Source of the DNA: Macrostomum hystrix
Lineage: Eukaryota > Animalia > Platyhelminthes
Direction of reading: 5' to 3'
Length of the DNA stretch: 64,000 bases
Assembly (NCBI GenBank): GCA_950097015.1
Contig: CATNEN010000038.1
Coordinates: 15,376,001-15,440,000 of the forward strand
The notes beneath the pieces are model-generated. The model did not search any database. It had not been told where the DNA came from and worked only from the letters and a program-made list of their open reading frames with translations. Shown here piece by piece: positions 4,789 through 63,973 of the stretch; within the stretch, counting starts at the first letter, position 1, and each line of letters starts with the position of its first letter. The position numbers and the translations under genes are program-made.

Positions 4789-4823
<35 letters not shown>

Positions 4824-5173
4824 TGCGGGAGGGCTGCGGGCAGTGCCAAATCAATTGGTGACACTAGACCCGCAGCCAGCGAGGAGGCAATTCTGCCCAT
4901 TTCGCTGACTCCTAAGCACACACGCACTCAGATACCGTAAGCAGGCACACGCTAACACAGGTGTGTACATCTGCGCTGACTTTCTCATCGTCAGGCAGTG
5001 TACACTTTCACTGTGCCTTGGAGGTTGGCCCTCAAGGGCGTAAATTGCACGACAAGCCCTCAAGCCTTCTCTCCGCGGCTGCGCCCCAAATGAATGTGGC
5101 CTCGCCGTGGAATCGAACTTAGGGACCTTGGTGCGAGAGACAAACGCGATAACCGCTCTGCCACCGACCCCCT
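4789..5173 (-). mobile_element. tRNA-derived SINE family 1 copy (antisense, 22 nt after the GPCR stop)
   Basis: (ATT)n tail, A/B-box-like head on the minus strand, 11-bp TSD gcagtaactgc (4778-4788 / 5174-5184); homologous to copies at 27.2, 45.5, 54.5 and 56.4 kb. Confidence 0.85.
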
Positions 5174-13898: not shown

Positions 13899-16800
13899 AT
13901 GGCATCAAACAATGTTGACATATCCGAGTTTGATCCACTGTCCCTATCTGACAGCAATGTCCAGGTGCCTGCCAACTCTGAGCTAGATTTTCAAGAGGAT
14001 CATTATGCCAATAGTAGGCCTCCTGTGATGCATCAGTTTGAGCCTATACACCAGCAACTAGGAAGATTGTCACTAGCACCTCACAACAGTCAGGTGAATT
14101 TATCAAATTGTTCTAAATAAATTTACTGAAAATAGTGCTCAGTGGGTTATACAATTTAGTTAAAACTTGCTGACTTTAGGACACTGCTTTTTTAGTTACG
14201 AGTCGACTATTAGTGATGTTGCACTTGAGCCAAGCATATGCCCTTTTAATTATCTAGTACAGGAAGTCAGCCCTGTGGTTAAGAGCTTCGAAATTTGGAA
14301 CAAGAGGTCTAGAGTTCGAATCTCAGCCAGGGAAAACTGTCTGTATCATTAGACAATACAATTTCAAAGGGCGCAGAGAAGTCTAACGTGTTTGCCTATG
14401 CCCTATGAGAATGCTTAGGGGCTTGTCGTGGAATTTACGCCCTTGAGGGCCAACCTCCAAGGCCCGGTGAGAGTGCAAACTGCCTGAGGATGAGAAAGTC
14501 ATACCTGTGTGCGTGGTATCTATCCATCTATCTGTCTATCTAATACACTTAAAGGCCGGGATAACGGCCGTCAGCGCGTCGCCGTCTCCGCTAGATTTTC
14601 CTAGCAACGCCAAGCTCGACTGGCTCGCCGATCCTGACGGCGACAACCAGCGGGAGGCAAAGCGGCATTTATTGCGCAGCTATCTGCGCGAGCATCAAAC
14701 AGAATTCACCGATTATAGCAGCCTGCAGATACAGTGCGGCACATGGAATGTTAATAATCAGTTTGATGAGTCACTCAGCTTAGTTGAGTGGCTGCAACCG
14801 CCAGCTGGACAGAGGCCGGCTGACATCTATGCACTGGGCTTCCAAGAGCTGGACCTGTCCACTATGACTTACATTACTCAGCGATCAGACAGAGAAGAGA
14901 AATGGACTCGACTGTGCCAAAGAGACTTTCCTAAGGGGTGAGCTGTCTCCGTCCGTCTGTCTTCCTCCCTGACCCTCTGTCTTTGTCCCCTCTGTCTTCC
15001 TCCCTGACCCTCTGTCTTCCTCCCTGACCCCTCTGTCTTTGTCCCCTCTGTCTTCCTCCCTGACCCCTCTGTCTTTGTCCCCTCTGTCTTCCTCCCTGAC
15101 CCTCTGTCTTCCTCCCTGACCCCTCTGTCTTTGTCCCCTCTGTCTTCCTCCCTGATCCTCTGTCTTTGTCCCCTCTGTCTTTGTCCCCTCTAAATTTATC
15201 CCCTCTTTCTTTGTCCCCTCTGTCTTTGTTCCCTTTATCTTTATCCCCTCTATCTTTATCCCCTGTCTTTGTCCCCTCTGTCTTTGTCCCCTCTACATTT
15301 ATCCCCTCTTTCTTTGTCCCCTCTGTCTTTATCCCCTCTTTCTTTGTCCCCTCTGTCTTTATCCCCTCTGTCTCCTATGTCTTTGACTCTTTGTCTCCTG
15401 CGTTTTTTCCTTTTTCCCCTCAGTCTTTGTCCTCTCTGTCTTTTTCCTCTGTCTTTGACCTCTCTGTCTTTTTACCCCAGTCTTTGTCCTTTCTGTCCCT
15501 ACTGTCTTTGTCCTCTCTGTCCCCACAGTCTTTGTCCTCTCTGTCCCCACAGTCTTTGTCCCCTCTGTCTTTATCCCCTCTGTCTTTGTCCCCTCTGTCT
15601 CTGTCTTCTCTGTCTCCTATGTCTTTGACTTTTTGTCTCCTGCGTTTTTTCCTTTTCCCCTCAGTCTTTGTCCTCTCTGTCTTTTTTTCCTCTCTGTCTT
15701 TGACCTCTCTGTCTTTTTACCCCAGTCTTTGTCCTTTCTGTCCCCACTGTCTTTGTCCTCTCTGTCCCCACTGTCTTTGTCCTCTCTGTCCGCACAGGCT
15801 TTGTCCTCTCTGTCCCCACTGTCTTTGTCCTCTCTGTCCCCACTGTCTTTGTCCTCTCTGTCCCCACAGTCTTTGTCCTCTCTGTTCCCACAGTCTTTGT
15901 CCCCTCTGTATTTATCCCCTCTGTCTTTGTCCCCTCTGTCTCTGTCTTCTCTGTCTCCTATGTCTTTGACTCTTTGTCTCCTGCGTTTTTTCCTTTTTCC
16001 CCTCAGTCTTTGTCCTCTCTGTCTTTTTCCTCTCTGTCTTTGACCTCTCTGTCTTTTTACCCCAGTCTTTGTCCTTTCTGTCCCTACTGTCTTTGTTCTC
16101 TCTGTCCCCACTGTCTTTGTCCTCTCTGTCCCCACAGTATTTGTCCTCTCTGTCCCCACAGTCTTTGTCCTATCTGTCCCCATAGTCTTTGTCCTCTCTG
16201 TCCCCACTGTCTCGTCTCCTCTTTTCTTCTTCTTTCCTCCTGTCCCCTCCGTACGCTTTCTGTGTTCTTCTTGTTTCCATTATTCCTTTTCCCTTTGTCC
16301 CCGTCTCTGTCTCTGTCTCAGCTTTGTGCCAACCATCTTACCTCACTATATGTGCCGCAATATTCATTAGCCTTCTAACTAAATTCTTGAAATTCCGCAG
16401 CCCGCACTGCTACAGCATAGTGAAAACTGTTCGCCTATTCTCCACTTTCCTATTGGTCGCCGCCAAAGATTCCATTCGGTCTCAGATACGCAATGTCCGC
16501 TTCGGCACCCAGGCCACCGGCCTGATGGGCTTCGGCGCTAATAAAGGCGGTACGGCTGTGAGATTTCAATTAGACGACACCCTATTCACCTTTGTTAATT
16601 GTCACCTGGCTGCCGGAGAAGATAAATTCGACAGCAGGTATAACGATCTGCGCGATATTCAACAGAAACTGCGCCTATTTTTTGACGGCACGGCTGGCCG
16701 GTACGAGTTATTGAGCCACACCGGCGACTCAGTCGGCAGTCACGTGACATTCTGCCTGGGCGATTTAAACTTTCGCCTCGCCGGCGTAACCAAGGAGGAC

Positions 16801-26617: not shown

Positions 26618-29600
26618 AAACAGCAGTCTCACCTGGAATGGCAGAATCTGTAGCTTCTCAGTGTCGAAGGCCACCGCCTCAGCGTCCAGAATAAAATCCA
26701 CAGCCTGGCGTCCAGTGAGCAGGTCAGGCACCCGGGCTGCAATGTCCGGATACTTGCTGGTATTGTTCTCCTGGTTGCGCGAGTAGACTCTAACGGAGCC
26801 GTCGGGCAGTCGGTGAATCTGGGCCCGCTCGCCGTCATATTTGAATTCGCAGGTGAAAGCGCCGACACCTTCGAAGCGCTTGAGAACCTCGGCTACACCG
26901 CGAGTAGGATGCGCCAGCATCGGCTTCAATGGCAGGCCAACCTGCAGACGGCAGCGGGACAGTAGGCCGGACAGGTCGCCGGAGCTGCTTGGTAGGGGAT
27001 AAGCAAGGAAACTTTGTTTCGAGTAATATGCGCCGAAAATCTCGAAAAATAACCTATTTACCGTTTCAACTTCCGTTTAAATGGAATAGAGAAAGCGTTC
27101 AAGCGTTGGAACCAGTTTCTGCACTTTAAAATATGTTTCTATATTTAGAAAATGTTTCTATTTTTAGAATCTGTTTCTATTTTTAGAATCTGTTTCTATT
27201 TTTAGAATCTGTTTCTTTCTTTAGAATCTGATTAGGAGGCGAGTGGCAGAGCGGTCTAACACATTTGCCTCTCGCACCAAGGTCCCTGAGCTCGATTTCG
27301 CGGCGACGCAACATTCATTTGCAGAGCAACCACGGAGAGAAAGCTTCGGGGCTTGCCGTGCAATTTACGCACTGGAGGGCCAACCTCCAAGATACAGTGA
27401 GAGTGTACACTGCCTGACGATGAGATCTGACGAAGTCAGGGCAGATGGACACACTTAAGTGAGCGTATGCCTGCGTGCGTACAGCATCTGTGTGAGTGTG
27501 TGCTCAGGAGTCAGCGAAATGAGCAGAATTGCCTCCTCGCTGGCTGCGGGTCTTATGGCACATGATAATAATGACACATCAGTATCCCCAAATGATGTGC
27601 CATTACCCGCAGCCCTCTAGCAATTATTATCATTATTATTAGAATCTGATTCTATTTTTAGAATCACAATCTATTTTTAGAATTAGTTTCCATTTTAGAA
27701 TCAGTTTCTATTTTTAGAATCAGTTTCTATATTTAGAATCAGTTTGAATTATTGACTCACCTTTCAGTTTCGGCAGTCTCAGCTAGCAGGGCTGCTATGA
27801 GGAGGTCATAGTTGGGACACCGGCAGTATGCGGTGCGAACCAGCAGTGCAGCTTCATCTTGGCGTCGTTTCCACGACTCGGCCGACTGGCCTTTGGCAGC
27901 GTCCGGGGTCTGCAAATTTGGTGACCTGACAAACGCGTGGCCCAGTGCGGATAGGACAGACAGTTCGGCTAATCCAATGCGCAGTCTACCAGATAGCGAT
28001 CTGATTAGGTATTTCGCTTCGCATTGGCGACAGGACACTAGTAGTGATTGGATTTTGGCCACCTGTTTAAGCGTGCAACAGTTTGTTCATAGCTTGAATA
28101 TGTCTTTGGTAAACGGTTGGGAGCAACTATGTCATTTTTCTTAAACTTTCGTAATATAATTAGCGACATGCGGGCATAGATAGATTTGGGTGAGATAATC
28201 CTGGGATAGATAAATGAAAGAAAACTTTGGTAAGATATACGATATTTTTTAAAGTAAGAAAACTTTAAGTTAGATAAATTCAATTTCAGATAATCCTAGG
28301 TTGGATCAGTTCAAGATGAGATAATCCTTGGTTGGATAAGTTCAAGATGAGATAATCCTTGGTTGGATAAATTCAAGATGAGATAATCCTTGGTTGGATA
28401 AATTTAAGATGAGATAATCCTAGGTTGGATAAATTCAAGATGAGATAATCCTAGGTTGGATAAATTCAAGATGAGATAATCCTTGGTTGGATAAGTTCAA
28501 GATGAGATAATCCTTGGTTGGATAAATTCAAGATGAGATAATCCTTGGTTGGATAAATTTAAGATGAGATAATCCTTGGTTGGATAAATTTAAGATGAGA
28601 TAATCCTTGGTTGGATAAATTCAAGATGAGATAATCCTAGGTTGGATAAATTCAAGATGAGATAATCCTTGGTTGGATAAGTTCAAGATGAGATAATCCT
28701 TGGTTGGATAAATTCAAGATGAGATAATCCTTGGTTGGATAAATTTAAGATGAGATAATCCTTGGTTGGATAAATTTAAGATGAGATAATCCTTGGTTGG
28801 ATAAATTCAAGATGAGATAATCCTAGGTTGGATAAATTCAAGATGAGATAATCCTTGGTTGGATAAGTTTAAGATGAGATAATCCTTGGTTGGAGAAGTT
28901 CAAGATTAGATAATCCTAGGTTGGATAAATAAAAAATTCAAGGTAAGATAATGATGAAATAGGCTACATAGGCTACATCGGGTGCAGTTGTACCTAGCCG
29001 AATCGAAGATCGGGGGTTCGATTCCTGACTTTACTGGAACAATTCGTATATATTAGCAAGACACTTAACCCAGCTGTGAAATCGGCATCAGCTGATGTGT
29101 AATTGATAGGTGTAATCAACTAGTATTGGTCATGTAAATGAGCAGTTGAGCTTACCTTTTTCTGCTGAGCCGCATTGCCAGACAGATCGGCTACCTCACG
29201 CAGGCGTTGAAAAACGGCAGCCACCGTCAGTGGCTTCGGCCGGCACATGACAGACTGGCGCGAGCGCAATGATTCGCTAACGGCACCCAAATCGCCCACA
29301 GTTTGAGCTCGCTGGCGAATCTTATCAACAGTTGAGCCGGTGCTCAAAGCCATTGCCTTCATCAGCACCGAATCGCCAATGCCTAATTCCACGGCTTCAT
29401 AGGCTGGAGCCAGCTGGTTCAGGCACAGGTAGACGCATGGCAACAAATCCTTGGGGCTTAATAGACGAACGGAGCGCAGGAAATTGCACAGCAATTCTAA
29501 AATTCGCAAACGGCCGGGTGTAGCTTCGATAGCTTCGAATGTCTTAGCCAGGGCCAGGTAGGGCACTGGTTCGCCGCTGGACCAGCTGGCGTCCAACAGA

Positions 29601-45353: not shown

Positions 45354-48023
45354 CTAATTGTCCTGCTCTGGCTCCTGATCGCCAGACTGCTCCGATGTCC
45401 ACAGCTGGTTTGAAATATTAAAGCAAAATAAAAGTTTCACTTGTTATTAGTATGAGAATTATTTGCGGGACGACTGCGGGCAATGGCACATCATTTGGTG
45501 ACACTAGTCCCGCAGCCAGCGAGGAGGCAATTCTGCCTGTTTCGCTGACTCCTGAGCACACACGTACACAGATACCATACACAGACACGCGCTCACACAG
45601 GTGTGTACATCTGCCATGACTTTCTCATCGTCAGGCAGTGTACACTTCACTGTGCCTTGTAGGTTGGCCCTCAAGGGCGTAAATTGCACGACCAGCCCCC
45701 ATGCCTTCTCTCGGCGACTGCGCCCTAAATGAATGTGGCCTCGCCGCGAAATCGAGCTCAGGGACCTTGGTGCCAGAGGCGAACGCGTTAACTGCTATTG
45801 TAATTAACTGCTAATTGTAACTGTTAAGACAAGGATTCTCACCGTGAGATTATCGCGCAGCAGTTGCATAATAAGCGTCGAGTCCTTGTACGAGTCCTCG
45901 GCCAGCTCGTCCAAAGCGGCGATGGCATTGTCGAAGGCCTGAATTAGTAATATAATTAAGTTTTAAGAATTTACAACTTTGTCGAAATGTAATGCTTAGC
46001 GTCTTAGTCAAATTTATTCGGAGAGCAGCAAGTTTGAGAAGCTAAATATCTTAGGCTCATTTTATTCAGAACATAAAGATCTCGTGTCGTATGTCAAAAA
46101 CATGAAGATCTAGAGTACTCCTTTGTTAATGCCAACAAGATCATTGGAGCATTCAAGCAATCATTCAAGCAGATATTGGGTGGCTCTGATTTGAGAAGAA
46201 GATATTGGGTAATCCTATGTTGAAAACACAATTATCTTTTGAAGGTATGATTTGAGAACATTTGTTATTTCGGAAACAATATGAATATGACTAGCCTTCT
46301 TAGCCAGCTGGCAGGCCTTGTCGGGATCATTGCGAATCTCGTAGAAGAACACGGAATAGTTTAGAGCCAGGCCCAGTCGAATCGGATGAGTGGTAGCCAG
46401 CTCATTCTCGGCATACTCGGTGGCGGATTTGTAGGCCTGCTCGGAGCTGTCAACCACTGTACTGCGCTCGTCACCGGTGGCCACCTCAGCTAGGTAGCGA
46501 TAATAATCACCTTTCATCTTGTAATAGAACACCTTCGACTCTGGATTCAAAGCGTTGGCAATCAGGAAGTCGTCCAGTAGACCCTGGGAATTTTAATTCA
46601 TCAACAGTCATCATCAAACGAAAACATTACGAATTTTAATCAAATCTTTAGGAGGTACATTAGCCAAGTAAGTTCTATATACATTTTGTAACTTAAAAAA
46701 ACAACTGTATTTTTATTTCTAATACTATATGACTAGGCCCTAGCCTTAGTCTATTAATTTGCTAGTTCTATTAAGTTGCAATCAGGTACAAATATGCCAT
46801 GACTGGTGCTTGTCCAGGTAAGGATAGTGAGTCACTACCTATGCTGCTGTGCTAGTGCTGCAGCTGTTATTGGAGGAATGGATCAATGGAGGAACATTGC
46901 AGGATTTTGCCCATGTCCTATGCCTCAAAGCTGTCAACAAGATGTTTTAGCATGGTTACAACCTGTGCTAGACCCAGACCTTCAGTACGAACAAAACAGG
47001 TTCTGGCCCGACCAAAGCATTGTGATGCAAATCCTGTCCTAATGCCACATCATCAACAAAGCCAGCATCCATCAGTTAATCCTAGTTTCTCTGTTTGTGG
47101 TTTTTTGCCAGGCTACCCTTAAGATAATCTCAGTAAGCCTATTCAGGTATTGCATACATCACAGAGTTACAAATTTAGCAATCATATTATTCATATTGAT
47201 AGGATGGGATCCCTATTCCAATCTTGTGATGCTAAGGAAAATTATTATTGCTAGGAAAGTTGCTAGAAATATTTTTATATAGTCAGAATCCCAAACAAAA
47301 GGGGAAATTAGGAACAGTTGTTTTGGTGCGTGGTCATTTTGTCTGCCACCTTTTCATCTACCTGCAGATGAAATTACTATTTTGAAAGAGGATGAGAACT
47401 ATAAAACCATAGGCCTATTATTCTAAAACATTTCTTTCATTACAGAAAGTATATATGATGTTAAATGTTTATATAATTAAAAAACATAAAATTTTTGTTT
47501 AATAGCATCATTGATAAAAATATTATCAGACTTTTAGGTTTAGGCCCTAGGCCTAGTGACTACTTAGATGCATTTTGTCTGAACTTGTACTGTACTGATT
47601 ACTATGTTAGGCCTAATATAACATATAGCATGAAAATGTTATATAGCAGAAAACCTGGTAAGACTAAGCAGAAAAACTTACCAGAACTTCTTTGCAGATC
47701 TTCTGGAGCTCGTTTTCAATTTTCAGTCTGTATTCCTTGCCCATAGCAAGCTTATTGTTTGACTTATCACTCCCAGCTTCGGATTTGCTTTCAATGCTTG
47801 AGATGACTCTCCATGATGAGCGACGAGCTCCAACAACATTCTTGTAAGCGACTGAAAGAAGGTTTCTCTCTTCATTGCCAAGTTCTTGACCCTTCTCCGT
47901 CACTGACTTCATAGCTTCTGCCATATCATCGTATCGTTCAGCCTGCTCAGCCAACTTAGCAATGTGAACTAAGTCCTCTCGAGAGTAAGAGCTCGAGCTT
48001 AGCCATTCAGTAAAGGTAGCCAT
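45354..48023 (-). CDS. 14-3-3: 14-3-3 protein (zeta-like); exons 48023-47682, 46583-46296, 45938-45843, 45404-45354; 258 aa
   Basis: [84 protein letters not shown]; intron 2 uses a GC donor (AAG|gctagt); 777 nt. Confidence 0.97.
45445..45797 (-). mobile_element. SINE family 1 copy in the last 14-3-3 intron
   Basis: Near-identical body to the 4789 and 56439 copies; head slightly truncated. Confidence 0.82.
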
Positions 48024-49137
48024 GTTAATACGATGTAGACTATTGACTAAGATAATCGAACAGAATGAAAATAATGAGTTCGCAGAATGACGAACAAATG
48101 CCTAGCTCACAAGATTAATAATCGCAAGTTTTTTGCTTTTCAAATAAAACTTCAAGTCAGCAACGATGTTCGTAACTATCAAAATATTTAAACCTAAATA
48201 TTTGGTTATTTGAGCATGTGTGGATAAATATAAAACCGAGATCTTCTTGTTTATTTAAAAAAGTATTTAGAAGTCAGAAGATTCTTTATTAGATTTTCCT
48301 ACTAGGATTACAAAAAAGCCGGAAATGAAAAAGTAAAACATATTTTATCCTACTTATTTTCCAAATAATAATCTAATAATAGGTTACTATTGTTGAACTT
48401 AAAATAAGTAAAAGTTAATCACAAAAATATTGATGGCATATAAAATATGTATGCGTCACTAGTACTCTGAGCTTTAATATCAGTCTAATAATATGCTTTT
48501 TAAAGCCCGAAAAGCATTCGCGCATCACCTGTTTGATGCCCATAGGTAGCTTTGTCTATGTCTTTGTATAAATCACAGATATACACGCACTGAGAAGTAG
48601 AGATGCGCTTTCAGATTTTTTCTTGAAAATTGTTTTATCATATTCCGCAATGAAGCCCTTTGTTTTAGCACTTTAATATAACTTATATAATAAAAAACGA
48701 AACGTAGGTTTGTTGATTTATTCGTAGACGTGCTAATACGGCTAGTATTAAAGCTTTTTAGATATAAAATGGGAGAAACTATTCGCTTGTCGCCCATTCA
48801 TTGTGAGCTCCTTGTTATTTATAGTTAAAAGGTTTTTTATTCAATAAAAAAATTAATTAGGGGTTAAATTTTTATTTCCATAGACTTTGGTGAGTTGTAC
48901 TTAAATTTAAAGTAAAAAAATTTCTTGGTCTAGTATTTCAAAGTATATCGATAATTCGTTTCACAGCTCAAAAATAGCTTAATAGCTTTTTGCAAATCAT
49001 TATTCCTAGTTTATCTTTCATATGATTGCTAATTCATGGACTTTGATGAATAAACTTTATTTGCCAGCTTTTCTTCTAAAATTCTGAAATAGATACATAA
49101 AGCATCTTATTTAAACTTCAGCTCAAATTCAGCAGCG

Positions 49138-49831
49138 ATGCCGCCAAAAAAGAAGGGAAAGAAGGGCGGAAAGAAGAAGAAGGATCCGGCAGTGCTCGAG
49201 ATGGAAGAAAAAGTGGCGCGAGGCATCAAAGAGACAATGTCGCTCAGGTAATAAAATGCTTTTTAGTATTCCACATTCGCATCGTGCATTAATTTTTTAT
49301 TTAAATTTTCATGTAGCTGAACAAAATCAATTGATCTCTTAAAACAGGGAGGGCATTGCGCAGCGCAAGGATTTGACCCGCAAAGCATTGGCGGCCGGCG
49401 TGGAGGCGGCTACAGTCAGAGATGCTGCATTGCGAGATCTTGAAGAGCTGCAAGACGATGCGGCGGATGTGAATGCCTACATGAGCAAACAGTACAAGAT
49501 GATGCAGGCACAGATGGGTCTCCAGGTCAACCAGCTGGAACGAGATCTGCACCGGGCTAACGAGGACCTCGCCGAACGGACCGCTGAATTGGCCGACCTA
49601 CGCCGGGAACTGGAGCGAACCGTCCGGGAGAAGGACGAGAAGATCAGCTCTCTGGAGTTGAAGATGCAGAATCTGCACAGCCAGTACCAGAACATGTTGC
49701 ACACATCGCTTGACTCGCTGATTGACAAACTGAAAAGCGAATGGCTAGGCTTCGAACATAAGGAGACCGGCCTGCACCAGCATTACAAATCGGCACTATT
49801 GGAGTTTGGCTTAAATACGCACGATATTTAA
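49138..49831 (+). CDS. CCDC153: Coiled-coil domain-containing protein 153 (DRC12-like, motile cilia); exons 49138-49247, 49348-49831; 197 aa
   Basis: MPPKKKGKKGGKKKK N-terminus, MSKQYKMMQ, MLHTSLDSLIDKL, LLEFGLN resemble CCDC153; GT-AG intron in phase (594 nt). Confidence 0.82.
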
Positions 49832-50139
49832 ACTGCCCGCCAGTTGATTTTGTATAGACATGCAAAATATTTAAACAGTCGCCGCTTTTGTAATTCTCAA
49901 CGTGAACCTATTATCCACCTAAGAAATTATAGATCTAATCGAATTGCAAATTGTTGAATCTAGTTGTTAAAATGTTTTAAATAAAAAACTGACCTGAAAA
50001 ATTAAATTTTACCAACAAAGAAAATGAAAAATCACTCATTCAGAAACAATTTATTCTATTTAGTGCTTGCACGTTCAGTTGAGTTCTTATTTTTTTGCCA
50101 AGGGCCAAAACCCCTGAAATCCAAGGATTCCAGTAACTA

Positions 50140-50945
50140 AATCCAAGGGTTTCAGTCCCTAAATCCAAGGGTTTCAGTCCCTAAATCCATGGGTTTCAGT
50201 CCCTAAATCCAAGGGTTTCAGTCCCTAAATCCATGGGTTTCAGTCCCTAAATCCAAGGGTTTCAGTCCATAAATCCATGGGTTTCAGTCCATAAATCCAT
50301 GGGTTTCAGTCCATAAATCCATGGGTTTCAGTCCATAAATCCAAGGGTTTCAGTCCCTAAATCCATGGGTTTCAGTCCCTAAATCCAAGGGTTTCAGTCC
50401 ATAAATCCAAGGGTTTCAGTCCCCAAATCCAAGGGTTTCAGTCCCTAAATCCAAGGGTTTCAGTCCCTAAATCCAAGGGTTTCAGTCCCCAAATCCAAGG
50501 GTTTCAGTCCCTAAATCCAAGGGTTTCAGTCCCTAAATCCAAGGGTTTCAGTCCCCAAATCCAAGGGTTTCAGTCCCTAAATCCAAGGGTTTCAGTCCCC
50601 AAATCCAAGGGTTTCAGTCCCCAAATCCAAGGGTTTCAGTCCCTAAATCCAAGGGATTCAGTCCCTAAATCCATGGGTTTCAGTCCCTAAATCCATGGGT
50701 TTCAGTCCCTAAATCCATGGGTTTCAGTCCCTAAATCCAAGGGTTTCAGTCCCCAAATCCATGGGTTTCAGTCCCTAAATCCAAGGGTTTCAGTCCCCAA
50801 ATCCAAGGGTTTCAGTCCCCAAATCCATGGGTTTCAGTCCCCAAATCCAAGGGTTTCAGTCCCCAAATCCATGGGTTTCAGTCCCCAAATCCATGGGTTT
50901 CAGTCCCCAAATCCATGGGTTTCAGTCCATAAATCCATGGGTTTG
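50140..50945. repeat. 22-bp minisatellite (aaatccaagggtttcagtccct)n
   Basis: Visible tandem array. Confidence 0.96.
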
Positions 50946-51202
50946 GAGAGAGGGCTTGCATAAAATGCAATACAATGCAATACAATGCAATAAAAATAAG
51001 TAACGGAGGTTACGAGCGTATATTTTAAACCTTGCACTAAATAGAATTTGAAGCCCTGCTGCTCAGCATCAAGGTTTCTGCCCCCCACCTGAGAGAAAAA
51101 AATTATAAAGTGCGCGTAGAAAGGCATTTATATATATTTGCGTAGTCTCAGCATTCTTTCAAAAAAACTTTTGTTTAAAGCTTCGACTGCTAAGATCTCA
51201 GA

Positions 51203-54200
51203 ATGAGCAAAGTAGTGGTAAGTTTAAAAATACACTCAAATGCAAATTTTTATGCTAAAAAACCGTTTAATTTAATTTAAACTTCTTTTATAACGACAGA
51301 AAAGTCAAGATTTCACAGGCGAGTTCACTTGTTGGACAGGCCAGATCACAGTTTAGACAGGCCAGATCACAGGTTGGACATGCCAGATCACAGGTTGGAC
51401 AGGTTAGTTCACAGGTTGGACAGGTTAGTTCACAGGTTGGACAGGCCAGTTCACAGGTTATAAAGGCCAGATCACAGTTTAGACATGCCAGATCACAGTT
51501 TAGACATGCCAGATCACAGGTTGGACAGGTTAGTTCACAGGTTGGACAGGCCAGTTCACAGGTTGGACAGGCCAGTTCACAGGTTATACAGGCCAGTTCA
51601 CAGGTTAGACAGGCCAGATCACAGTTTAGACATGCCAGATCACAGGTTGGACAGGTTAGTTCACAGGTTGGACAGGCCAGTTCACAGGTTGGACAGGCCA
51701 GTTCACAGGTTGGACAGGCCAGTTCACAGGTTATAAAGGCCAGATCACAGTTTAGACAGGCCAGATCACAGGTTAGACAGGGCAGTTCACAGGCTATACA
51801 GGCCAGATCACAGGTTATACAGGCCAGATCACAGGTTGGACAGGCCAGATCACAGGTTATACAGGGCAGTTCAAAGGCTATACAGGCCAGATCACAGGTT
51901 GGACAGGCCAGATCACAGGTTATACAGGGCAGTTCACAGGCTATACAGGCCAGATCACAGGTTGGACAGGCCAGATCACAGGTTATACAGGGCAGTTCAC
52001 AGGCTATACAGGGCAGTTCACAGGCTATACAGGCCAGATCACAGGTTGGACAGGCCAGATCACAGGTTAGACAGGGCAGTTCACAGGTTAGACAGGGCAG
52101 TTCACAGGTTAGACAGGGCAGTTCACAGGTTAGACAGGGCAGTTCACAGGTTAGACAGGGCAGTTCACAGGTTAGACAGGGCAGTTCACAAGTTAGACAC
52201 CATAATGACAGAGGATTTAATTTGAGTTAAGGTTTCTGTAACGCAATGTGCTGATCCGCATGCAGGAGCTTGGTCGCTTGGCCATTTGCGGCGACTTCAA
52301 CGCTGTTAAACGTCTAGCAACCAAGCAACTGATGCTAGCAGTTGATGAATACGGTTGGACTGCGCTGATGCTAGCTGCCGACTCTGACGATAGCCCACCT
52401 TCATTTGGAAAGTGCATTGAGTACTTTATCTATTTGGGTGCGAACCCGTGCTCGATTGACTCTGACGGCAACACTGCTGCGCACTTTGCGGCTAGGCAAG
52501 ACCATCTGCGGATGCTGGCGCTCCTGCCGTTTAAAGCAAAGTGGCAGTTGAACGGGTAATATTTTTCTTTCAGTTTGTTTAACCTCTTCTGCGCTTACTG
52601 GAGATTTTCTACAGAAGGAAGGAAATTCTGACTACGCAGAAAATCACAGAGAAGGAAATGGCGAGGAAATCGAGAGCCATCTCAACGGCCAGCCAATCAT
52701 GGAGAAAGAGAGGGGAAGGAAATAAAGTTAGGCATCCTATCCGCCAGCCAATCACGGAGATAGAGAGGGGAAGGAAAAGTGAGGCATCTAATCCGGCAGC
52801 CAATCACGCATAAAGAGAGGGTAAGGAAAACATTAGGCATCCTGTCCGCCAGCCAATCGCGGAGAAGGAAAGCTTTTTATGTTGTACCATCCTACCGGCA
52901 GCCAATCACAGGCGAGAGAAGAAGCAAGGAGCGAGGAGCAGTGATTGCTAGCCAATTATTAGCCGCGATTGTATTATTAGACGCTGTTGAGCACGTGCGA
53001 TTGTATCTGAAAAGATCGTAAAGATCTAGTTTCCTTAATTTGCAGTCGGGGAGAAAATCCGCTAATGGAAGCAGTTCGCGCAGGAAATTGGCGATGCGCC
53101 AAGCATCTTCTCTACTTGCTTCGCCAGATGAGATATAACGAGTGCGACACGAGCGATAATGCGAAACGAAGCAATCTGCTTCAGACGCGAAATCGTGAAG
53201 GCCTCACAGCAATGGATCTGGCTCAACGAAATGGCCACTCTGAATTAGCTAAAATCATTCAGATGTAAGGAACAATTAATTTTTTAGACTAAAATTTAAA
53301 GTAAATTATCAGCCTTTTGTATTTGTCTGAAACACGCAAAACAACAATTTTTTAGAGAGTTGAGACTTGAGGTGGACGAAGATGGCAGACTCTACGGCCT
53401 GACTGACTCGGTAAGTTACATGCTAGAACATAGCTTGCTATATTTGCTATATTTGCTTGCTAAATCAGCAAGGCTTATTTTGCTGAACGATAGTAACACT
53501 TTGTTACTTTGATGGTCGCAGGTAGTGTAGCACCTGTTTGAGGGTCGTGAGTGGTTTAGCACCTGTTTGTCAGTCGTAGGTAGTTTAGCACCTTTTTGAC
53601 GGTCACAGGTAGTTTAGCACCTGTTTGACAGTCACAGGTAGTTTAGCACCTGTTTGACGGTCACAGGTAGTTTAGCACTGGTTTGACAGTCACAGGTAGT
53701 TTAGCACCTGTTTGACGGTCACAGGTAGTTTAGCACCTGTTTGACGGTCACAGGTAGTTTAGCACCTGTTTGACAGTCACAGGTAGTGGCACCTGTTTAA
53801 AAAATGCCTACGTAAAATCAACTGATTCCCTTTTCTTGTTTTAAAGTACGTGATTCACAAGGTTGTATTCAACACAATAGAGAATGGTTTCCCAGAAGTT
53901 AAGAAACGGCTTTTCCGTACAGGAGGATCAGCAACTGGGAATTGTGCACAGATTGGCTAAGTCTAACAACTTGTCACAACTGATACGAACTGCTGACTGC
54001 GTCAACTGCGACCTGCCAGAGTCTGAAGGACCGACCGCTCTCATGAGGGCCTGCGCCAATTGCACCAGCAGCCGGTTGGCCGACTGGATGTCGCTGATGA
54101 AATGCGCCGACATCACCTGCGCCAGCGTTGGCGGCCTCACGAGCCTGCACTGGGCGGCTAGGGCTGGAAATTCTGTCGCCGTCGAGGCCCTACTGACAGC

Positions 54201-56129
54201 CGGCGCCAATCCGAACGAAGTTGACGACGTCAACGCCAGGACGCCGCTGATGCTGGCGTCGATCGGAGCTCCGACTGAAGGCGGCGTCGACGCTTCGGTT
54301 GGTCGCACGCTGCTGGCAGGCGGAGCCGACTGGAGCCTGACGGACGTCAGGGGCAAGACTGCGCTGGATTTGGCCAAGGATTATCGACGCAACGGCCTGG
54401 CTGACCTACTGCAACAGTGAGTTGCGATAGAGAGCTACGACACTGCTCTCATTATTTTATAATAATAATAATAATAGTTGTCATAATGTTAATAATTGCA
54501 GTAGGGCGGGCAATGGCACATCATTTGGTGACACACTTGACCCGCAGCTAGCGAGGAGGCAATTCTGCCCATTTCGCTGACTCCTGAGCACACACGCACA
54601 CAGATACTGTACGCAGGCACACGCTCACACAGGTGTGTACATCTGCGCTGACTTTCTCATCGTCAGGCAGTGTACACTTTCATTGTGCCTTGCAGGTTGA
54701 CCCTGGAGGGCGTGAATTGAACGACAAGCCCTCAAGCCTTCTCTCCGCGGCTGCGCCAAAAAAGAATGTGGCCTCGACGCGAAATCGAGCTCAGGGACCT
54801 TGGCGCTTCAGGCGAATCCTTTAACCACTCCGCCACCTTTCCCTCGACCTTTGTCATTGAAACATACTGAAAACAATTCGCTACACAACAATCAACAGTG
54901 ATTCGCAACCTTCTCTCCACGGTCAGGTATCGAAGCAAACGCTTTTTCGATGAACCAGTCCATCTGACAATGTCGAGCCAACAAAGGATGCCGCATTCAT
55001 ACAGTGCAGCGGGCACCGATGGTGATAACCAGATGCCCTTGTCATATCGCCTACCAAAAGCAGCCACGATGCCTACAATGCAAGTTAAATTTGCATTAAA
55101 TTCACTAAATTAATCTAAGTGCTTACGTGGTAGGCTTAGAGGCCATGTTAAATGGAACGAAAAATGCTTCACAAAAGCCAGTGGAAAACGGAAACGATGA
55201 AAAGCTGAGAAAAATGAGAACTGGTGGAAGCTGGGATAGCAGTCAGGGTCAAACAATAGCAGGAAAGCTAAAAAATCTTGATAGCTAGGTTTTATGTTCT
55301 CAAGGAAAGTGCAATGTTAGCATAGTTGATTGTATTCCTTATTTTTTTCATTCAATTTAGGAATTCGATTTTACAACGCAGCTATCGAGTAACTATTCCA
55401 CAGGGCATCTGTCTGATCATCAACAACAACACATTCAAAGACGGTACGAACCTCAAAGAACGATTTGGATCGACTTATGATGTCAATCGGGTGTTGAATC
55501 TGTTCACTCTTCTTCAATTCAAAGTTGAAGTGAAGCAGGATTTGACACGCTCAGAAATGATTAGTTGTTTCGAGCAGATTGGCAGGATGGATCACAGTCG
55601 ATTTGGCACATTTGTCTGCTTCCTCATGTCTCACGGAAGCGATGGTGTCGTCTACGGCACCGATGGCTTGACCATAGACCTGCAGAGCACTCTGGTGAGC
55701 CCACTGCAGGCCAGCCGGTGCAGAAGCCTCAGCGACAAGCCCAAGATATTCTTCGTGCAAGCATGTCGCGGCGCTCATGACAATCTAGTTTCTCCGCAGT
55801 ACGACTCCGATAGCGACCAGTTCTGTCCGAACGAGGCTGACTTCCTATTCTGCTATTCCAATGTCGAGGGTTACAAGAGCTACCGTAGTTGGGAAAGTGG
55901 ATCGCCGTTTATCAAACAGCTCTGCCAAGTCATTAAAACACATCACTCGAAGCATCACCTCACCGACATGATGAATGAAGTGAATCACATTGTGAGAAGC
56001 TGGCAGTTCACTAGGTCAACTGAGAAAGAAGAACCGGCTACAATGTGCATGGTGCCAAGCTATGTGTCCCGGCTGGGTGGCACGGTTTGGTTCGACCCGG
56101 GACGGGCAAGCAAGCTACAAACTTCCTGA
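51203..56129 (+). CDS. Ankyrin-repeat + caspase (peptidase C14A) fusion protein; exons 51203-51217, 52266-52555, 53046-53264, 53356-53410, 53923-54416, 54927-55079, 55361-56129; 664 aa
   Basis: Ankyrin motifs GWTALMLAA, GNTAAHFAA, GENPLMEAV, GLTAMDLA, GPTALMRAC, GLTSLHWAA, RTPLMLAS, GKTALDLA; caspase motifs GICLIINN, RFGS..D, LMSHG, KPKIFFVQACRG, ADFL, SYR, GSPFI. All junctions are in phase (1995 nt), the last via GC donor AT|gcaagt. The two domains are clear; the 15-nt first exon and the fusion are modelled. Confidence 0.8.
51330..52200. repeat. 21-bp minisatellite (cacaggttggacaggccagtt)n in ANK-caspase intron 1
   Basis: Visible; explains HRLDRP ORFs. Confidence 0.95.
53510..53800. repeat. 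29-bp minisatellite (ggtagtttagcacctgtttgacggtcaca)n in ANK-caspase intron 4
   Basis: Visible tandem array. Confidence 0.92.
54458..54842 (-). mobile_element. SINE family 1 copy in ANK-caspase intron 5
   Basis: Homologous body and (ATT)n tail; boundaries approximate. Confidence 0.82.
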
Positions 56130-56438
56130 GTGCTCTTCACTGCTTTGCTTCAAGAAGGCATGTATTTTATCTAGACGTAATTTTTTAATCAAGAAAACCA
56201 GTTTACTTTTTGAAAACTGTAACAATATTATTTTATCCTGACCTAAATTATTCATAAGTTTAAAGTTTACTTTTTTAATTTGCATGATTATGGACTTCTG
56301 AGTCACACCCCAACTATAACCGTTGCCAGTGCACCCGAATCCTCGCTGGAGCCCCCCCCTCCAGGGAGGAGGAGGAGGTGCGTCCAACTCCTCGCCGTTC
56401 CCAGAAACCCCTGTTTCATACAAGTTCAAGCATCCTTA

Positions 56439-56805
56439 AAAATACAATAATAATAATTGCAGTAGGGCTGTGGGCAATGGCACATCATCTGGTGACACAC
56501 TAGACCCGCAGCCAGCGAGGAGGCAATTCTGCCCATTTCGCTGACTCCTGAGCACACACGCACACAGATACTGTACGCAGGCACACAATCACACAGGTGT
56601 GTACATCTGCCCTGACTTTTTCATTGTCCGGCAGAGTACACTCTCACTGTGCCTTGGAGGTTGGCCCTCAAGGGCGTAAATTGCACGACAAGCCGCCAAG
56701 CCTTCTCTCCGCGGCTGCGCCCAAAGTAAACGAGGCCTCGCCGTGTGGAATCAAACTAAGGGACTGTGGTGCGAGAAACAAACGCGCTAACCGTTCTGCC
56801 CCCAC
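56439..56805 (-). mobile_element. SINE family 1 full-length copy downstream of the caspase exon
   Basis: 13-bp TSD tcaagcatcctta (56426-38 / 56806-18); tRNA-like head and ATT tail. Confidence 0.86.
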
Positions 56806-59839: not shown

Positions 59840-60709
59840 CTGAGGTGGTGTTGGTTTTGGGAGGCATGTCGTCAATTTAGTGGATAAAAAGTGTGACACA
59901 CTAAAAGTGGGGAACGAACCTCGCGCTGGCAGACCGAGACCGGTTTCTGGCTTGTTTGCCTTCGTCAGTCAGCCATAGCCACACGCAGTCCTCTCCCACC
60001 ACTCTTAGTGTGCACAGAAGTCTGTTTTAAGCTTGCCATTTTTATGGCGATATTTTTTAGTGTTATGTGAGAGTTTTGCAGCCAAGTCTTTGCTTTTCTA
60101 CTGTTGTCAGTAGTCTGAATTGTATCTCTCACAAAAAGGCTTCTATCGACTATCAACTTGGGCCCTTTGGGGCCAACTCAAAGATGCAGTGCTGTGTGTA
60201 CACACTGTACGCTTAACAATAAGAAAGTCATACAAGGCATGTGTATCGCTTGCCCTGTGTGTACGCGCGTGTCCCAGAGCTCGATTCTGCGGCGGGGCCA
60301 CATTCAATTTTCTCCATTCTCGGATCTGCGCTCAAAATAGTTTATTTATATTTATTCGAAAATTACATTCCGCACTCTAGGTCAGTGAAATAGACGGTCT
60401 ATTAATCTTGTTTTTTAAGGACTTTATAAGACTTAGAAATCTGAATGGAATTTAAGTGGGCGTTAGTAGGAAGCAAAAGCCAAAAATAGCAACAGCAGAA
60501 AGTACGAGCAACCGAAAGGAGAATGATTAGACAAAATCCGCCCCCAGAGATCAACTATTCATTTCAGCGCAGGCCCGGTTCGGCATGACAGCAGCTGTGC
60601 CGACGTGGAGCTGGCTGAGACCGGATCCGCAGAGGCGCTGACGTGGAGCTGCCGGAGACCGGATCCGCAGCTGTGCTGACGTGGAACGGCCCCAGCCGGA
60701 CCGACATGC

Positions 60710-62614
60710 GCACTCCTGCTGAAAATACTACTCTTCGCATTGCTCTGTACCACGGCGGAGACGATAAACCCAAGACACCAGAACTGGGTGGACACACCGA
60801 TGTACTGCCCGGAGCCCTCCAGGCCACAGATCTTCAAGCTGCCACCGGACATCGAGTGCAAGATGCCTAGCAGTATACAACAGCACCGACAGCCGATCAA
60901 CCTGACAATCTTTAGACCAAACCAGGTCTCTCACCGATCAACACTCAAGATCTGTTACCGAGAAACGTATGTCTTCACCAGCGTAGCACTGAAAACGATT
61001 GCCGCTAAAGTGGTAAGACCAGAAATGACTGTTACGGTGCAGAAACATCTAGTTTCAGAGGAAGATTGTGAGTCCTGGGAGGAAGGTTACCGAACACCAG
61101 ATGGCATCCTTGAAGAAGATGGGAAAGCTCCGAACAAAGCTGAACGCTTTACTACTCACATCTGGACAACAGAGGAATTCGACCCAACGGCTAGTACCCA
61201 AACTAGATATACGAAATCAGCGTCCACGCTGATAACGAAAATTCCGTTCTTCGTGGTGAATAAGAAAATGTCATCGCTATATATCCCACTAGGACATTGC
61301 AATTACACCATAGGAAAATGTCTTCACGAGTCCACTCTACAGGCCGAGAAGGATGCGCCGTTGGAGAGACAAGTACCCAATAAATTATGGGAAGCTCTGA
61401 GATACTACGACACAACATTCAAGGTCGCTGGAGAACGCCAGTACAGATATGCCTGGACACCCAGCGCTGCAATTGACTGCCCGTACCAGGAAGACAGGCG
61501 AATTGAAGGAACCATACACACAGGATGGTTAATGTCCAAGGACGCTACCTACGCTTTGACTTTTAAACACCCACCACACTCAATGGAGCTGAAATGCGGA
61601 GGAACGACAACTAAACTATTCAGGTCAGAACAAGGAAAGTTGGTTAAACTAGAAGGATCCGAAGCAGAATTCTTATCGATAGTACAAGGCAATTTTAATA
61701 ACTCTAGCACAGCAAAGAGGGCAAAGAGAGACTTGGTATCACAGGAAACTCTAGCAGCGAAACTACAGAGCGTTGAACTTACAATGGAAAACAGAATTGG
61801 TGATCTGACTCGTCATGTAATCCTTCAACAATGCCGACTCCAACAGACCATTTTTAGATACATTAAAGACTTCATAAGGATACAACCAACACTAGCGGTG
61901 AGGACACTGTTCAAAGACAAGCACCTCAAGGCCAGAACAATAGCCCAGCATGTCGTAATCTTCAAATGCATCCCAGTGACCGACTTCGAATTCCATCAAC
62001 CACACTGGAATCAAAGCCGATGTTTCTCCAAACCTCCGTTGAAGTACAAAGTAGCGGAGACCAACCGTACAGGATTTTTGGACGTAAGAACTATGGAAAT
62101 TGAGACAGAGCACCCCACCTTTCAGGACTGCTCGAACCGAACTGGATACCTGTTACCCAAAGAGGACAAAGTGTACAAGGTCGACTCAAATTTCACCAGC
62201 TTCGAACTTATACAGGTAAAGAAATTGAAGAACGAAGATTGGGGAATAGAGGCTATGAAATTACCTAACATCAAACGGATTATCTTTACACCAGAAACAG
62301 ATATTAAAATAGAAGAAATCCGAAGGCCAATTACATTGCACGATCTGTACACGCAGATGAAGGACCAGAGAGAATTTCTGAGAACGGTATTTAAACTACC
62401 AAAGCAGAAGACTTCACAGACGCTCGACCTCCCACCATTGGAAGCAAACATAGCCCTCAAAACTTATGACTTCGCATCTTGGATGCCGTGGATAGGCATA
62501 AAACTCAATATTTTCAACATAGCCGTTGGAGCTGCCGCTCTCTGTGTATACTTCTACATCATACTTAAAACCATAATAGTTTGTCACAGGCTCTATCGGA
62601 AAAAGTACGAGTGA
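60710..62614 (+). CDS. env: Envelope-like glycoprotein (class III / herpesvirus gB-type fusion protein)
   Basis: Signal-peptide-like ALLLKILLFALLCTTAE (in frame, upstream of the tracked ORF), at least 7 N-glycosylation sequons, furin site KRAKR (61715-29), gB-like PTLAVRTLF...LKARTI...VVIFKCIPV...CFSKPPL, C-terminal TM. No in-frame ATG for the signal peptide. Confidence 0.8.
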   Translation, partial: ALLLKILLFALLCTTAETINPRHQNWVDTPMYCPEPSRPQIFKLPPDIECKMPSSIQQHRQPINLTIFRPNQVSHRSTLKICYRETYVFTSVALKTIAAKVVRPEMTVTVQKHLVSEEDCESWEEGYRTPDGILEEDGKAPNKAERFTTHIWTTEEFDPTASTQTRYTKSASTLITKIPFFVVNKKMSSLYIPLGHCNYTIGKCLHESTLQAEKDAPLERQVPNKLWEALRYYDTTFKVAGERQYRYAWTPSAAIDCPYQEDRRIEGTIHTGWLMSKDATYALTFKHPPHSMELKCGGTTTKLFRSEQGKLVKLEGSEAEFLSIVQGNFNNSSTAKRAKRDLVSQETLAAKLQSVELTMENRIGDLTRHVILQQCRLQQTIFRYIKDFIRIQPTLAVRTLFKDKHLKARTIAQHVVIFKCIPVTDFEFHQPHWNQSRCFSKPPLKYKVAETNRTGFLDVRTMEIETEHPTFQDCSNRTGYLLPKEDKVYKVDSNFTSFELIQVKKLKNEDWGIEAMKLPNIKRIIFTPETDIKIEEIRRPITLHDLYTQMKDQREFLRTVFKLPKQKTSQTLDLPPLEANIALKTYDFASWMPWIGIKLNIFNIAVGAAALCVYFYIILKTIIVCHRLYRKKYE

Positions 62615-63973
62615 CCAGGAATTCGGGCAATTCAAAGACGGATAAAGGCGACGCGAGAACAACACGAATTGTTAGTACAGCCAAGCACGGACACTAGCTA
62701 CAGACACACGGGCCCACGCCGCCCAGCACCAGAGGCACCAACCACAAATAAGGAACAGCATCACCCGATGATTCCGTCTGCTCCACTGGCTTCATCAATC
62801 TATCCGACGATCAGCTCATGGCCACCGCCGATAGTGGCAGCAATTACGAACGGCCAGAAATACACGGTGACACGACTGAAGATAGGCACGCGAGTCTGCA
62901 GAGCGCTGATAGACAGCGGAGCTGAGAGGTCGCTGATAGACGAAGCGACGGCGCGCCGATACAGTGACAGCTTCGAGAAGCCGACGACAGAGCTACAAGG
63001 AGTACACGGAGGAAATCTCACGCAATCCGGAATGATCACGTTACCAGTCGAAGCAGGAAACGCAATCGTCAACGTTAAGTTTCATGTCATTCCTAACTTG
63101 AGCTCTGGGAGATACCATGCACTCCTGGGAATTGATTACTTAAGTCAGTTGCAGGAGGGTATGTCTATCAATTACCAACAGCAACAGATGCAGTTAAATG
63201 GCAGATCGTATGAAATCATGACAGTCGCCGCCCAAGAAGCCCCAAATAAGATCAGACTAGTTTCCGTGGTAAACCTGAATCCATGGGAAACAGCTCAAAT
63301 TACAGCTAGAACCGACTCAAAGGAGGAATTGCCTGACACGGTACTTTTCGAGCCAGACAGGGGTATCGTCGAGAATAAGGCGATAGGTCTGACTCAGGAG
63401 ATAGTTCATCCGGACGAGAAGGGAGAGATACACGTTCTCATATCTAACGAATCAGCCAGACCGATCACTCTGTACCCGGATACAGCCATAGGTTCGTATG
63501 AGGCAGATATAAAGACATATGAAATAGCTGTGAATCAGGAACAGGCACCGGCAATGACAGAGACAGAATTCAGAGATGCGATTAATCTGCAGGGAGCCGA
63601 GATAACAGCAGAGCAGAAAGAACAACTAAGAGAAATCCTCTGGGAGAACAAGGAAGCATTTCGTCTCTCAGATGATGAGATAGGCTTTACAGAAGTAGCG
63701 AAACACGAACTCCACATAAAACCGATTGTGGAGGTGAAGCTGATTTCAAATCAAGAGTCTTTCCAAGTGCACACCGACAGGCTGAAGCCAATGGCCACGT
63801 CAACACCACATGTGATGCTTCCTGACCTCAGACCGAGCGACCCACAGCGCCACCAGCGACAGCCAAGGCAGCGATTCACCAAGGAAGTGAGTGTGCAGGC
63901 AGAGGAGCTGGACGCACAGGCCGATACAGCTCGGAAGAAATACAATCTGAGGAGTAAAGTGAAACTTCTTTGA
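62615..63973 (+). pseudogene. pol: pro-pol remnant: retropepsin protease, linker, RT N-terminus fused in frame to integrase C-terminal tail
   Basis: ALIDSGAERSLI and LLGIDYL (aspartic protease); EQKEQLREILWENKEAF...IGFTEVAKHELHI (pre-RT); VHTDRLKP...KYNLRS (gypsy IN tail). No YxDD, RNase H or DDE motifs. Confidence 0.82.

Follow-up and report, generated by a model that had tools for sequence, protein, structure and literature searches.

Our analysis of a 64,000-nucleotide (nt) stretch of the genome of the flatworm Macrostomum hystrix (contig CATNEN010000038.1, positions 15,376,001 to 15,440,000 of the forward strand; this whole stretch is hereafter the window, and positions are counted from its first letter) identified one spliced gene at 51203-56129 on the + strand, which encodes a 664-amino acid (aa) protein with two tandem ankyrin units in front of a caspase domain. 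These two units form a module that defines a large family in Macrostomum lignano, where it is carried by kinases as well as by caspases, and where the predicted binding face of the second unit is hypervariable among young paralogues. The presence of the module on kinases too, together with the variable second face, suggests an undescribed family of intracellular sensors. The reading that we favor, and to which we give a probability of roughly 45%, is that unit 2 binds a specific target and unit 1 a constant partner, with clustering activating the caspase by proximity.

Gene structure and protein architecture

The gene has seven exons and a coding sequence of 1995 nt (664 aa plus stop); introns 1-5 are GT-AG, and the last, intron 6, is GC-AG. 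The features of the locus are as follows:

51179..51217, + strand: exon 1; contig 5′ end at 51179/51180, in-frame stop upstream, ATG at 51203; aa 1-5
51315..52199, no strand: minisatellite of intron 1, a 21-nt unit × 42, spliced out by the exon 1/2 joint
52266..52555, + strand: exon 2; aa 6-102; cap and repeats 1-2 of ankyrin unit 1
53046..53264, + strand: exon 3; aa 102-175; unit 1 repeats 3-4, conserved family helix and insert
53356..53410, + strand: exon 4; 55 nt; aa 175-193; connector joining ankyrin units 1 and 2
53923..54416, + strand: exon 5; aa 194-358; ankyrin unit 2, i.e., cap and four repeats, with binding-face positions hypervariable in relatives
54927..55079, + strand: exon 6; aa 358-409; begins with the conserved tail of the module and continues into the linker; the GC-AG intron comes next
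55361..56129, + strand: coding part of exon 7; aa 409-664; entire caspase domain; contigs continue to 56201-56312

Transcript evidence was taken from contigs of four public runs from one study, which are not labelled as RNA; since the runs cover the exons and skip the introns, with most intron bins empty, these contigs behave as transcripts. All six splice joints, including 54416/54927 and 55079/55361, are present in contigs of every run, with no mismatched letters and no gaps on the listed exon pieces. Exons 1-7 lie on a single contig in run X1 (2133 nt) and in run X4 (2091 nt), and a single contig in each of runs X2 and X3 spans ankyrin exon 5 to the caspase exon. This confirmed the proposal of an earlier note, made from the sequence alone, that seven exons splice in phase into one 664-aa open reading frame (ORF). 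The same note had observed that the apparent stops of the ankyrin ORFs at 52559, 53268, and 54420 coincide with splice donors, and that the caspase exon has no ATG start of its own; the stops indeed overlap the donors GTAATA, GTAAGG, and GTGAGT, and the first Met inside the exon is residue 475, already within the domain. The outcome that the note had named as contrary to its model, a separately transcribed caspase, did not occur, and there is next to no chance that two distinct genes were fused by mistake: although all RNA-like evidence comes from the one study, single contigs bridge the ankyrin and caspase exons in four of four runs, and collinear single-chain relatives exist in another species.

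Splice models that omit exon 4 or use earlier acceptors for exon 5 were rejected, as every one contained stops, and long ORFs in intron 1 were rejected as artefacts of the minisatellite. Further minisatellites lie at 50112-50944 (22 nt, upstream of the gene), 52688-52866 (52 nt, intron 2), and 53508-53798 (29 nt, intron 4). In every run, the contigs begin at the same place to within one base (51179-51180), at an AG after a T-rich tract, so that this position is either a start that is fixed or, possibly, an acceptor for trans-splicing.

In Pfam, exons 2, 3, and 5 match ankyrin repeats and exon 7 matches Peptidase_C14 (E 1.8e-49, 169 bits), so that the ankyrin prodomain precedes P20/P10. Alignment of the exon 7 caspase to human caspase-3 (E about 4e-45) demonstrated that the catalytic pair, His500 and Cys544, is kept, as the earlier note had claimed, and that Arg443, Gln542, and Arg584, which we take to be the residues of the Asp-specific S1 pocket, align as well. 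Since all these catalytic and S1 residues are kept, the domain is predicted to be an active Asp-specific protease. Its intersubunit loop contains four Asp in 21 residues, including the candidate cleavage sites Asp557/559/561. Neither a CARD, a DED, nor a death domain was matched by Pfam at E 0.01 on exons 2, 3, 5, 6, and 7 (exons 1 and 4 encode 5 and 18 aa), and Pfam scans of the window protein and of family members found no NACHT or NB-ARC. No hydrophobic leader is visible by eye, which suggests a cytosolic location. Horizontal transfer from bacteria was rejected: the gene has introns, and the caspase is of animal type.

One claim of the earlier note did not hold, namely that the linker is of low complexity: residues 369-421 have an entropy of 3.85, close to the median of 53-aa windows (3.88), and contain no low-entropy 12-mer. 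The first ~10 residues of this linker are part of the ankyrin module, and in relatives the linker is predicted to be disordered.

Each of the two tandem units of the prodomain is ~165 aa long and consists of a cap and four repeats. In hhalign, the two units match each other along their whole length (99.7%, score 139 versus 69 in shifted register), and this preference over any shifted register is consistent with internal duplication. The model of the relative P0311 (57-row alignment) has a predicted local distance difference test value (pLDDT) of mostly 94-98 over residues 31-390 and a predicted template modelling score (pTM) of 0.77, with a disordered linker; from this model, each unit is predicted to be a capped five-element ankyrin stack, both packing as one rigid domain before the linker. 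Unit 2 of the relative's model fits a tankyrase ankyrin cluster (Z 21.7, root-mean-square deviation (rmsd) 1.9, 158 aligned) and designed ankyrin repeat proteins (DARPins; background in PMC8683736, consulted in part) about equally, and the best Foldseek matches of the P0002 model are DARPin-DARPin fusions, a likeness of fold. No solved chain in the structure search fits both units rigidly, the two-unit rows having rmsd 16-28, and an Atlas search with the module alone and a viral fold search each returned generic ankyrins only. The full-length P0002 model (7-row alignment, pTM 0.38) is uninformative on contact between ankyrin and caspase, and a two-copy model of the P0311 module (score 0.00, alignment not used) is likewise uninformative.

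The module family in M. lignano and its variable face

Our searches found the ankyrin module in 72 cluster representatives, 69 of which are labelled M. lignano. This supports a large, lineage-specific family; the lineage-specific immune or cell-death pathway that the earlier note had suggested would be a further step. BLAST with unit 1 gave up to 196 bits within this family and 52 bits for the best outsider, and alignment showed that the window protein carries both the two tandem units and the conserved signature of unit 1. The representatives comprise 11 with a caspase, 17 with a kinase, one with both, and 43 with neither; truncated models account for many of these 43, and some genes may be counted twice through alternative annotation. 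Relatives in M. lignano are collinear with the window protein over its full length at 33-38% identity. For example, PAA56209, PAA46841, and PAA51405 (caspase) and PAA47029 (kinase and caspase), all annotated as hypothetical, share the two-unit module and the tail motif; none of the M. lignano members is a close orthologue, and identity between their caspases and that of the window protein does not exceed 40%. In two relatives, P0033 and P0296, the catalytic Cys is replaced by Gly, i.e., the caspase is dead. Three ORFs of 166-172 aa (P0368, P0372, and P0375) are 54-59% identical to unit 1 and end where window exon 3 ends, which suggests a conserved intron 3, and no intron 2, in those relatives. 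Four pairs of members lie on contigs of identical size (421538, 416335, 449519, and 97615). In two of these pairs, one member is a caspase form and the other a kinase form. The shared sizes suggest that members are clustered in the genome.

In a caspase tree of 33 rows, the window protein and 11 M. lignano rows fall on one side of a branch (60/74), and sponge-like caspases also emerge from this open fork; the window caspase groups weakly and tentatively with the M. lignano caspases. What appears to be the same caspase group in M. lignano also has other front ends (P0253/P0303, P0038, P0040/P0046, and P0172), i.e., one or two Rho-like GTPases, an LRAT domain, long near-identical ankyrin arrays, or ankyrin plus kinase, and these caspases resemble integrated-decoy sensors. 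Of these, the portions of PMC11463336 consulted report only a kinase form.

Binding-face sites were set as repeat positions 33, 2, 3, 5, 10, and 13, plus 14. Position 14 we presume to be a face site from DARPin design, and we likewise assume how the positions are numbered with respect to the TPLH motif; the other six positions are named as the ankyrin binding surface in the part of PMC4308713 consulted. The two units were covered well enough in 44 of the 72 sequences, 25 of which form a young clade. Among these 25 paralogues, the entropy of unit 2 is 2.02 at its 27 face sites and 0.62 at the 132 others, compared with 0.54 and 0.35 in unit 1, and face sites of unit 2 make up 13 of the 20 most variable positions overall. 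Leaving out five near-duplicates gave 2.05 for the unit-2 face, and sliding the sites by 1-3 positions lowered the value to 0.80-1.33. Across all 44 sequences, face and remaining sites have entropies of 2.65 and 1.28 in unit 2 and of 1.48 and 0.93 in unit 1. In nine kinase-bearing paralogues, identity is 86% in the kinase, 88% outside the face and 79% on the face of unit 1, and 79% and 37%, respectively, in unit 2. Based on these results, a twin-unit ankyrin module that is common to caspases and kinases, has a hypervariable second face, and occurs in a free-living flatworm lineage is a distinct variant of a known architecture. Literature searches, covering listings of open-access papers, returned no publication on this twin-ankyrin family of Macrostomum.

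Proposed sensing, rival readings, and the setting of the gene

Dimerization, cleavage of the intersubunit loop, and then cleavage of substrates are the standard behavior of initiator caspases. On the reading that we favor, the window protein would work as a sensor-effector zymogen: the conserved face of unit 1 would bind a constant partner or scaffold, the face of unit 2 would set specificity by binding a particular target, and clustering on that target would dimerize the caspase domains by proximity, after which they would cleave first the Asp-rich loop (Asp557-561) and later substrates that contain Asp. Kinase-bearing and dead-caspase relatives may supply parallel and regulatory outputs. A role in defence would be the most likely driver of the variability of unit 2.

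The earlier note had proposed such a sensor-effector protease, and the hypervariable unit-2 face gives this indirect support in relatives, although the window gene itself branches outside the hypervariable clade in a quick, unstarred module tree. Several further points weigh against it. In the young hypervariable clade, most members are kinases or effector-less models, and only two carry a caspase, dead in one and partial in the other; the face of unit 1 also shows a smaller excess of variability (p 0.0085; sites and paralogues are non-independent, and p-values are therefore indicative). In natural ankyrin repeats at large, too, these face sites are the most variable, according to the part of PMC4308713 consulted, and the comparison used protein sequences alone. 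Simple specialization for different substrates could likewise explain why paralogues diverge at a binding face, and the window gene is the sole copy in the window, among housekeeping genes.

This singleton position is also one of the points in favor of the strongest alternative, which we nevertheless consider unlikely, namely that the ankyrin units dock an endogenous protein for the caspase or kinase, as in tankyrase clusters or ASB proteins, in a developmental or housekeeping role and outside defence. In the structural comparison, unit 2 is most like a substrate-binding cluster of tankyrase (tied with DARPins), several types of enzyme are attached to the module, and the tail of P0341 resembles a SOCS box by eye, although Pfam does not call one there. 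However, a face 37% identical on recent paralogues that are otherwise 79-88% identical would be changing faster than fixed host substrates usually allow.

A further alternative, akin to the inference of the earlier note that ankyrins stand in for death-fold recruitment and rated here as distinctly improbable, is that the module replaces the death fold as a like-binds-like tag, gathering ankyrin caspases, ankyrin kinases, and ankyrin-only proteins in the manner of a caspase-8/RIPK/cFLIP platform. The mixture of caspase, dead-caspase, kinase, and effector-less forms in one family would suit such a tag, as would a near-invariant unit 1 and tandem units that recall tandem DEDs, and an ankyrin-bearing activator has been proposed for parasite ankyrin caspases (PMC11463336, in the portions consulted). 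A shared assembly tag needs no hypervariability in unit 2, and many of the effector-less models may be truncated, as they stop in the middle of a repeat or at an exon boundary. This explanation could still hold for unit 1 alone.

The idea that the ankyrin domain is an autoinhibitory cap, keeping its own caspase off until it is displaced by a ligand or the linker is cleaved, is a long shot: designed ankyrin proteins can inhibit caspases (work cited in the portions of PMC11463336 consulted), and an Asp-Gly occurs at linker positions 389-390, but the identical type of module is also found on kinases, and in P0035 and P0207 the linker is missing or very short. Sensing, substrate docking, an assembly tag, and autoinhibition are not exclusive and are mutually compatible.

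If the hypervariable unit is indeed a sensor, the proteins would represent a simple two-part design of binder and enzyme, without the nucleoside triphosphatase (NTPase) switch that NLRs need. A wider, tentative proposal, which we think possible but rather unlikely, is that macrostomids have an NLR-free intracellular immune repertoire of natural DARPin-like proteins, with a constant assembly unit, a hypervariable recognition unit, and interchangeable caspase, dead-caspase, or kinase outputs; the window gene would then be an old caspase-output member, and ankyrin-caspase fusions would have arisen at least twice in flatworms before parasitism. M. lignano is a laboratory model with RNA interference and transgenics, and the family provides a receptor-like system that can be tested in a species where immune recognition is poorly known.

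The surroundings of the gene contain other elements. Neighbors between 3573 and 59871 are ordinary genes, i.e., an Srw-type G-protein-coupled receptor, a protein kinase, an inositol-phosphatase-like enzyme, a DNA ligase, an RGS protein with GGL, 14-3-3, and FAM221, and a coiled-coil gene lies at 49093-49831. A dispersed repeat of ~330 nt at 54480-54810, in intron 5 and not in the mRNA, has five further copies in the window (4810-5134, 56451-56772, 45476-45773, 27274-27552, and 14407-14501) and a contig depth hundreds-fold above that of the exons, and is possibly an element of short interspersed element (SINE) type. On the + strand, a 644-aa ORF at 60680-62614 matches a Pfam viral fusion glycoprotein (PF24664, E 3.8e-10), and a 451-aa ORF directly after it, at 62615-63973, matches a retroviral-type aspartyl protease (E 3.2e-7); judged by these matches, 60680-63973 is an envelope-bearing, retroelement-like insert with an unusual order, the envelope-like gene standing ahead of the protease.

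Comparison with known ankyrin caspases and receptor systems

Ankyrin caspases were reportedly first noted in Schistosoma, a finding credited to Lee et al. 2014. The view of the earlier note that ankyrin prodomains are atypical for caspases stands, although such proteins are not new: they have been published for parasitic flatworms (PMC11463336, in the portions consulted) and also occur in molluscs. For example, P0157 (Haliotis) and P0181 (Batillaria) each contain a caspase, long ankyrin arrays, and an nSTAND3 NTPase, arranged in a different order in each protein. An Atlas cluster of 55 proteins, most of them from arthropods, also combines ankyrin and caspase, as do proteins of bacteria, for which the domain order is not given. 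Our protein searches returned no parasite ankyrin caspase, although such proteins exist, one search being swamped by long ankyrin proteins; these searches therefore do not give the taxonomic range of the family.

The portions of PMC11463336 consulted restrict ankyrin caspases to parasitic flatworms, with one annelid as the exception, and the table there scores M. lignano as having none. The M. lignano members of the module family break this rule. A published claim that ties these proteins to the origin of parasitism thus needs correction, as about a dozen with the module (12 cluster representatives) occur in a free-living flatworm, which by eye also has one ankyrin caspase of the parasite type. 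Macrostomids are a free-living group. The parasite-type protein is PAA88208, which is in the supplement of PMC11463336 and, by eye, is a caspase starting with ankyrin repeats, though the table gives the species none. PAA56209 had no match in that supplement, in which all 17 places mentioning Macrostomum and the first 28 of 38 mentioning ANK were covered.

The parasite proteins in the portions of PMC11463336 consulted share with the window protein N-terminal ankyrin repeats, a linker, a C14A caspase, and a flatworm lineage. By eye, those of Echinococcus and Schistosoma in the supplement places covered differ in having a single ankyrin block, a much longer linker, and no signature helix, and PAA88208 is closer to them than is the family of the window protein; this comparison by eye leans towards a separate fusion for the window family. 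The initiator caspases caspase-8, -9, and -2 resemble the window protein in their long prodomain and in the same catalytic and S1 residues, whereas the window protein, unlike them, has no CARD or DED. Tankyrase ankyrin clusters and DARPin-DARPin fusions are, like the window prodomain, discrete five-element ankyrin units in tandem, but the likeness is one of fold only (23-30% identity); the enzyme of tankyrase differs, and DARPins are artificial.

Based on the parts of PMC4986451 and PMC8226289 consulted, the systems with a comparable design are fungal NLRs and the hypervariable NLRs (hvNLRs) of plants, which, like the family described here, combine variability on a binding face with exchangeable effectors, including kinases. 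The ankyrin repeats of fungal NLRs, which are positively selected (PMC4986451, same part), show the same variability signature as the unit-2 face; such selection is shown for the NLRs and suggested for the module family. Compared with these NLRs, the module family has no NACHT or NB-ARC switch, and its repeat number is fixed.

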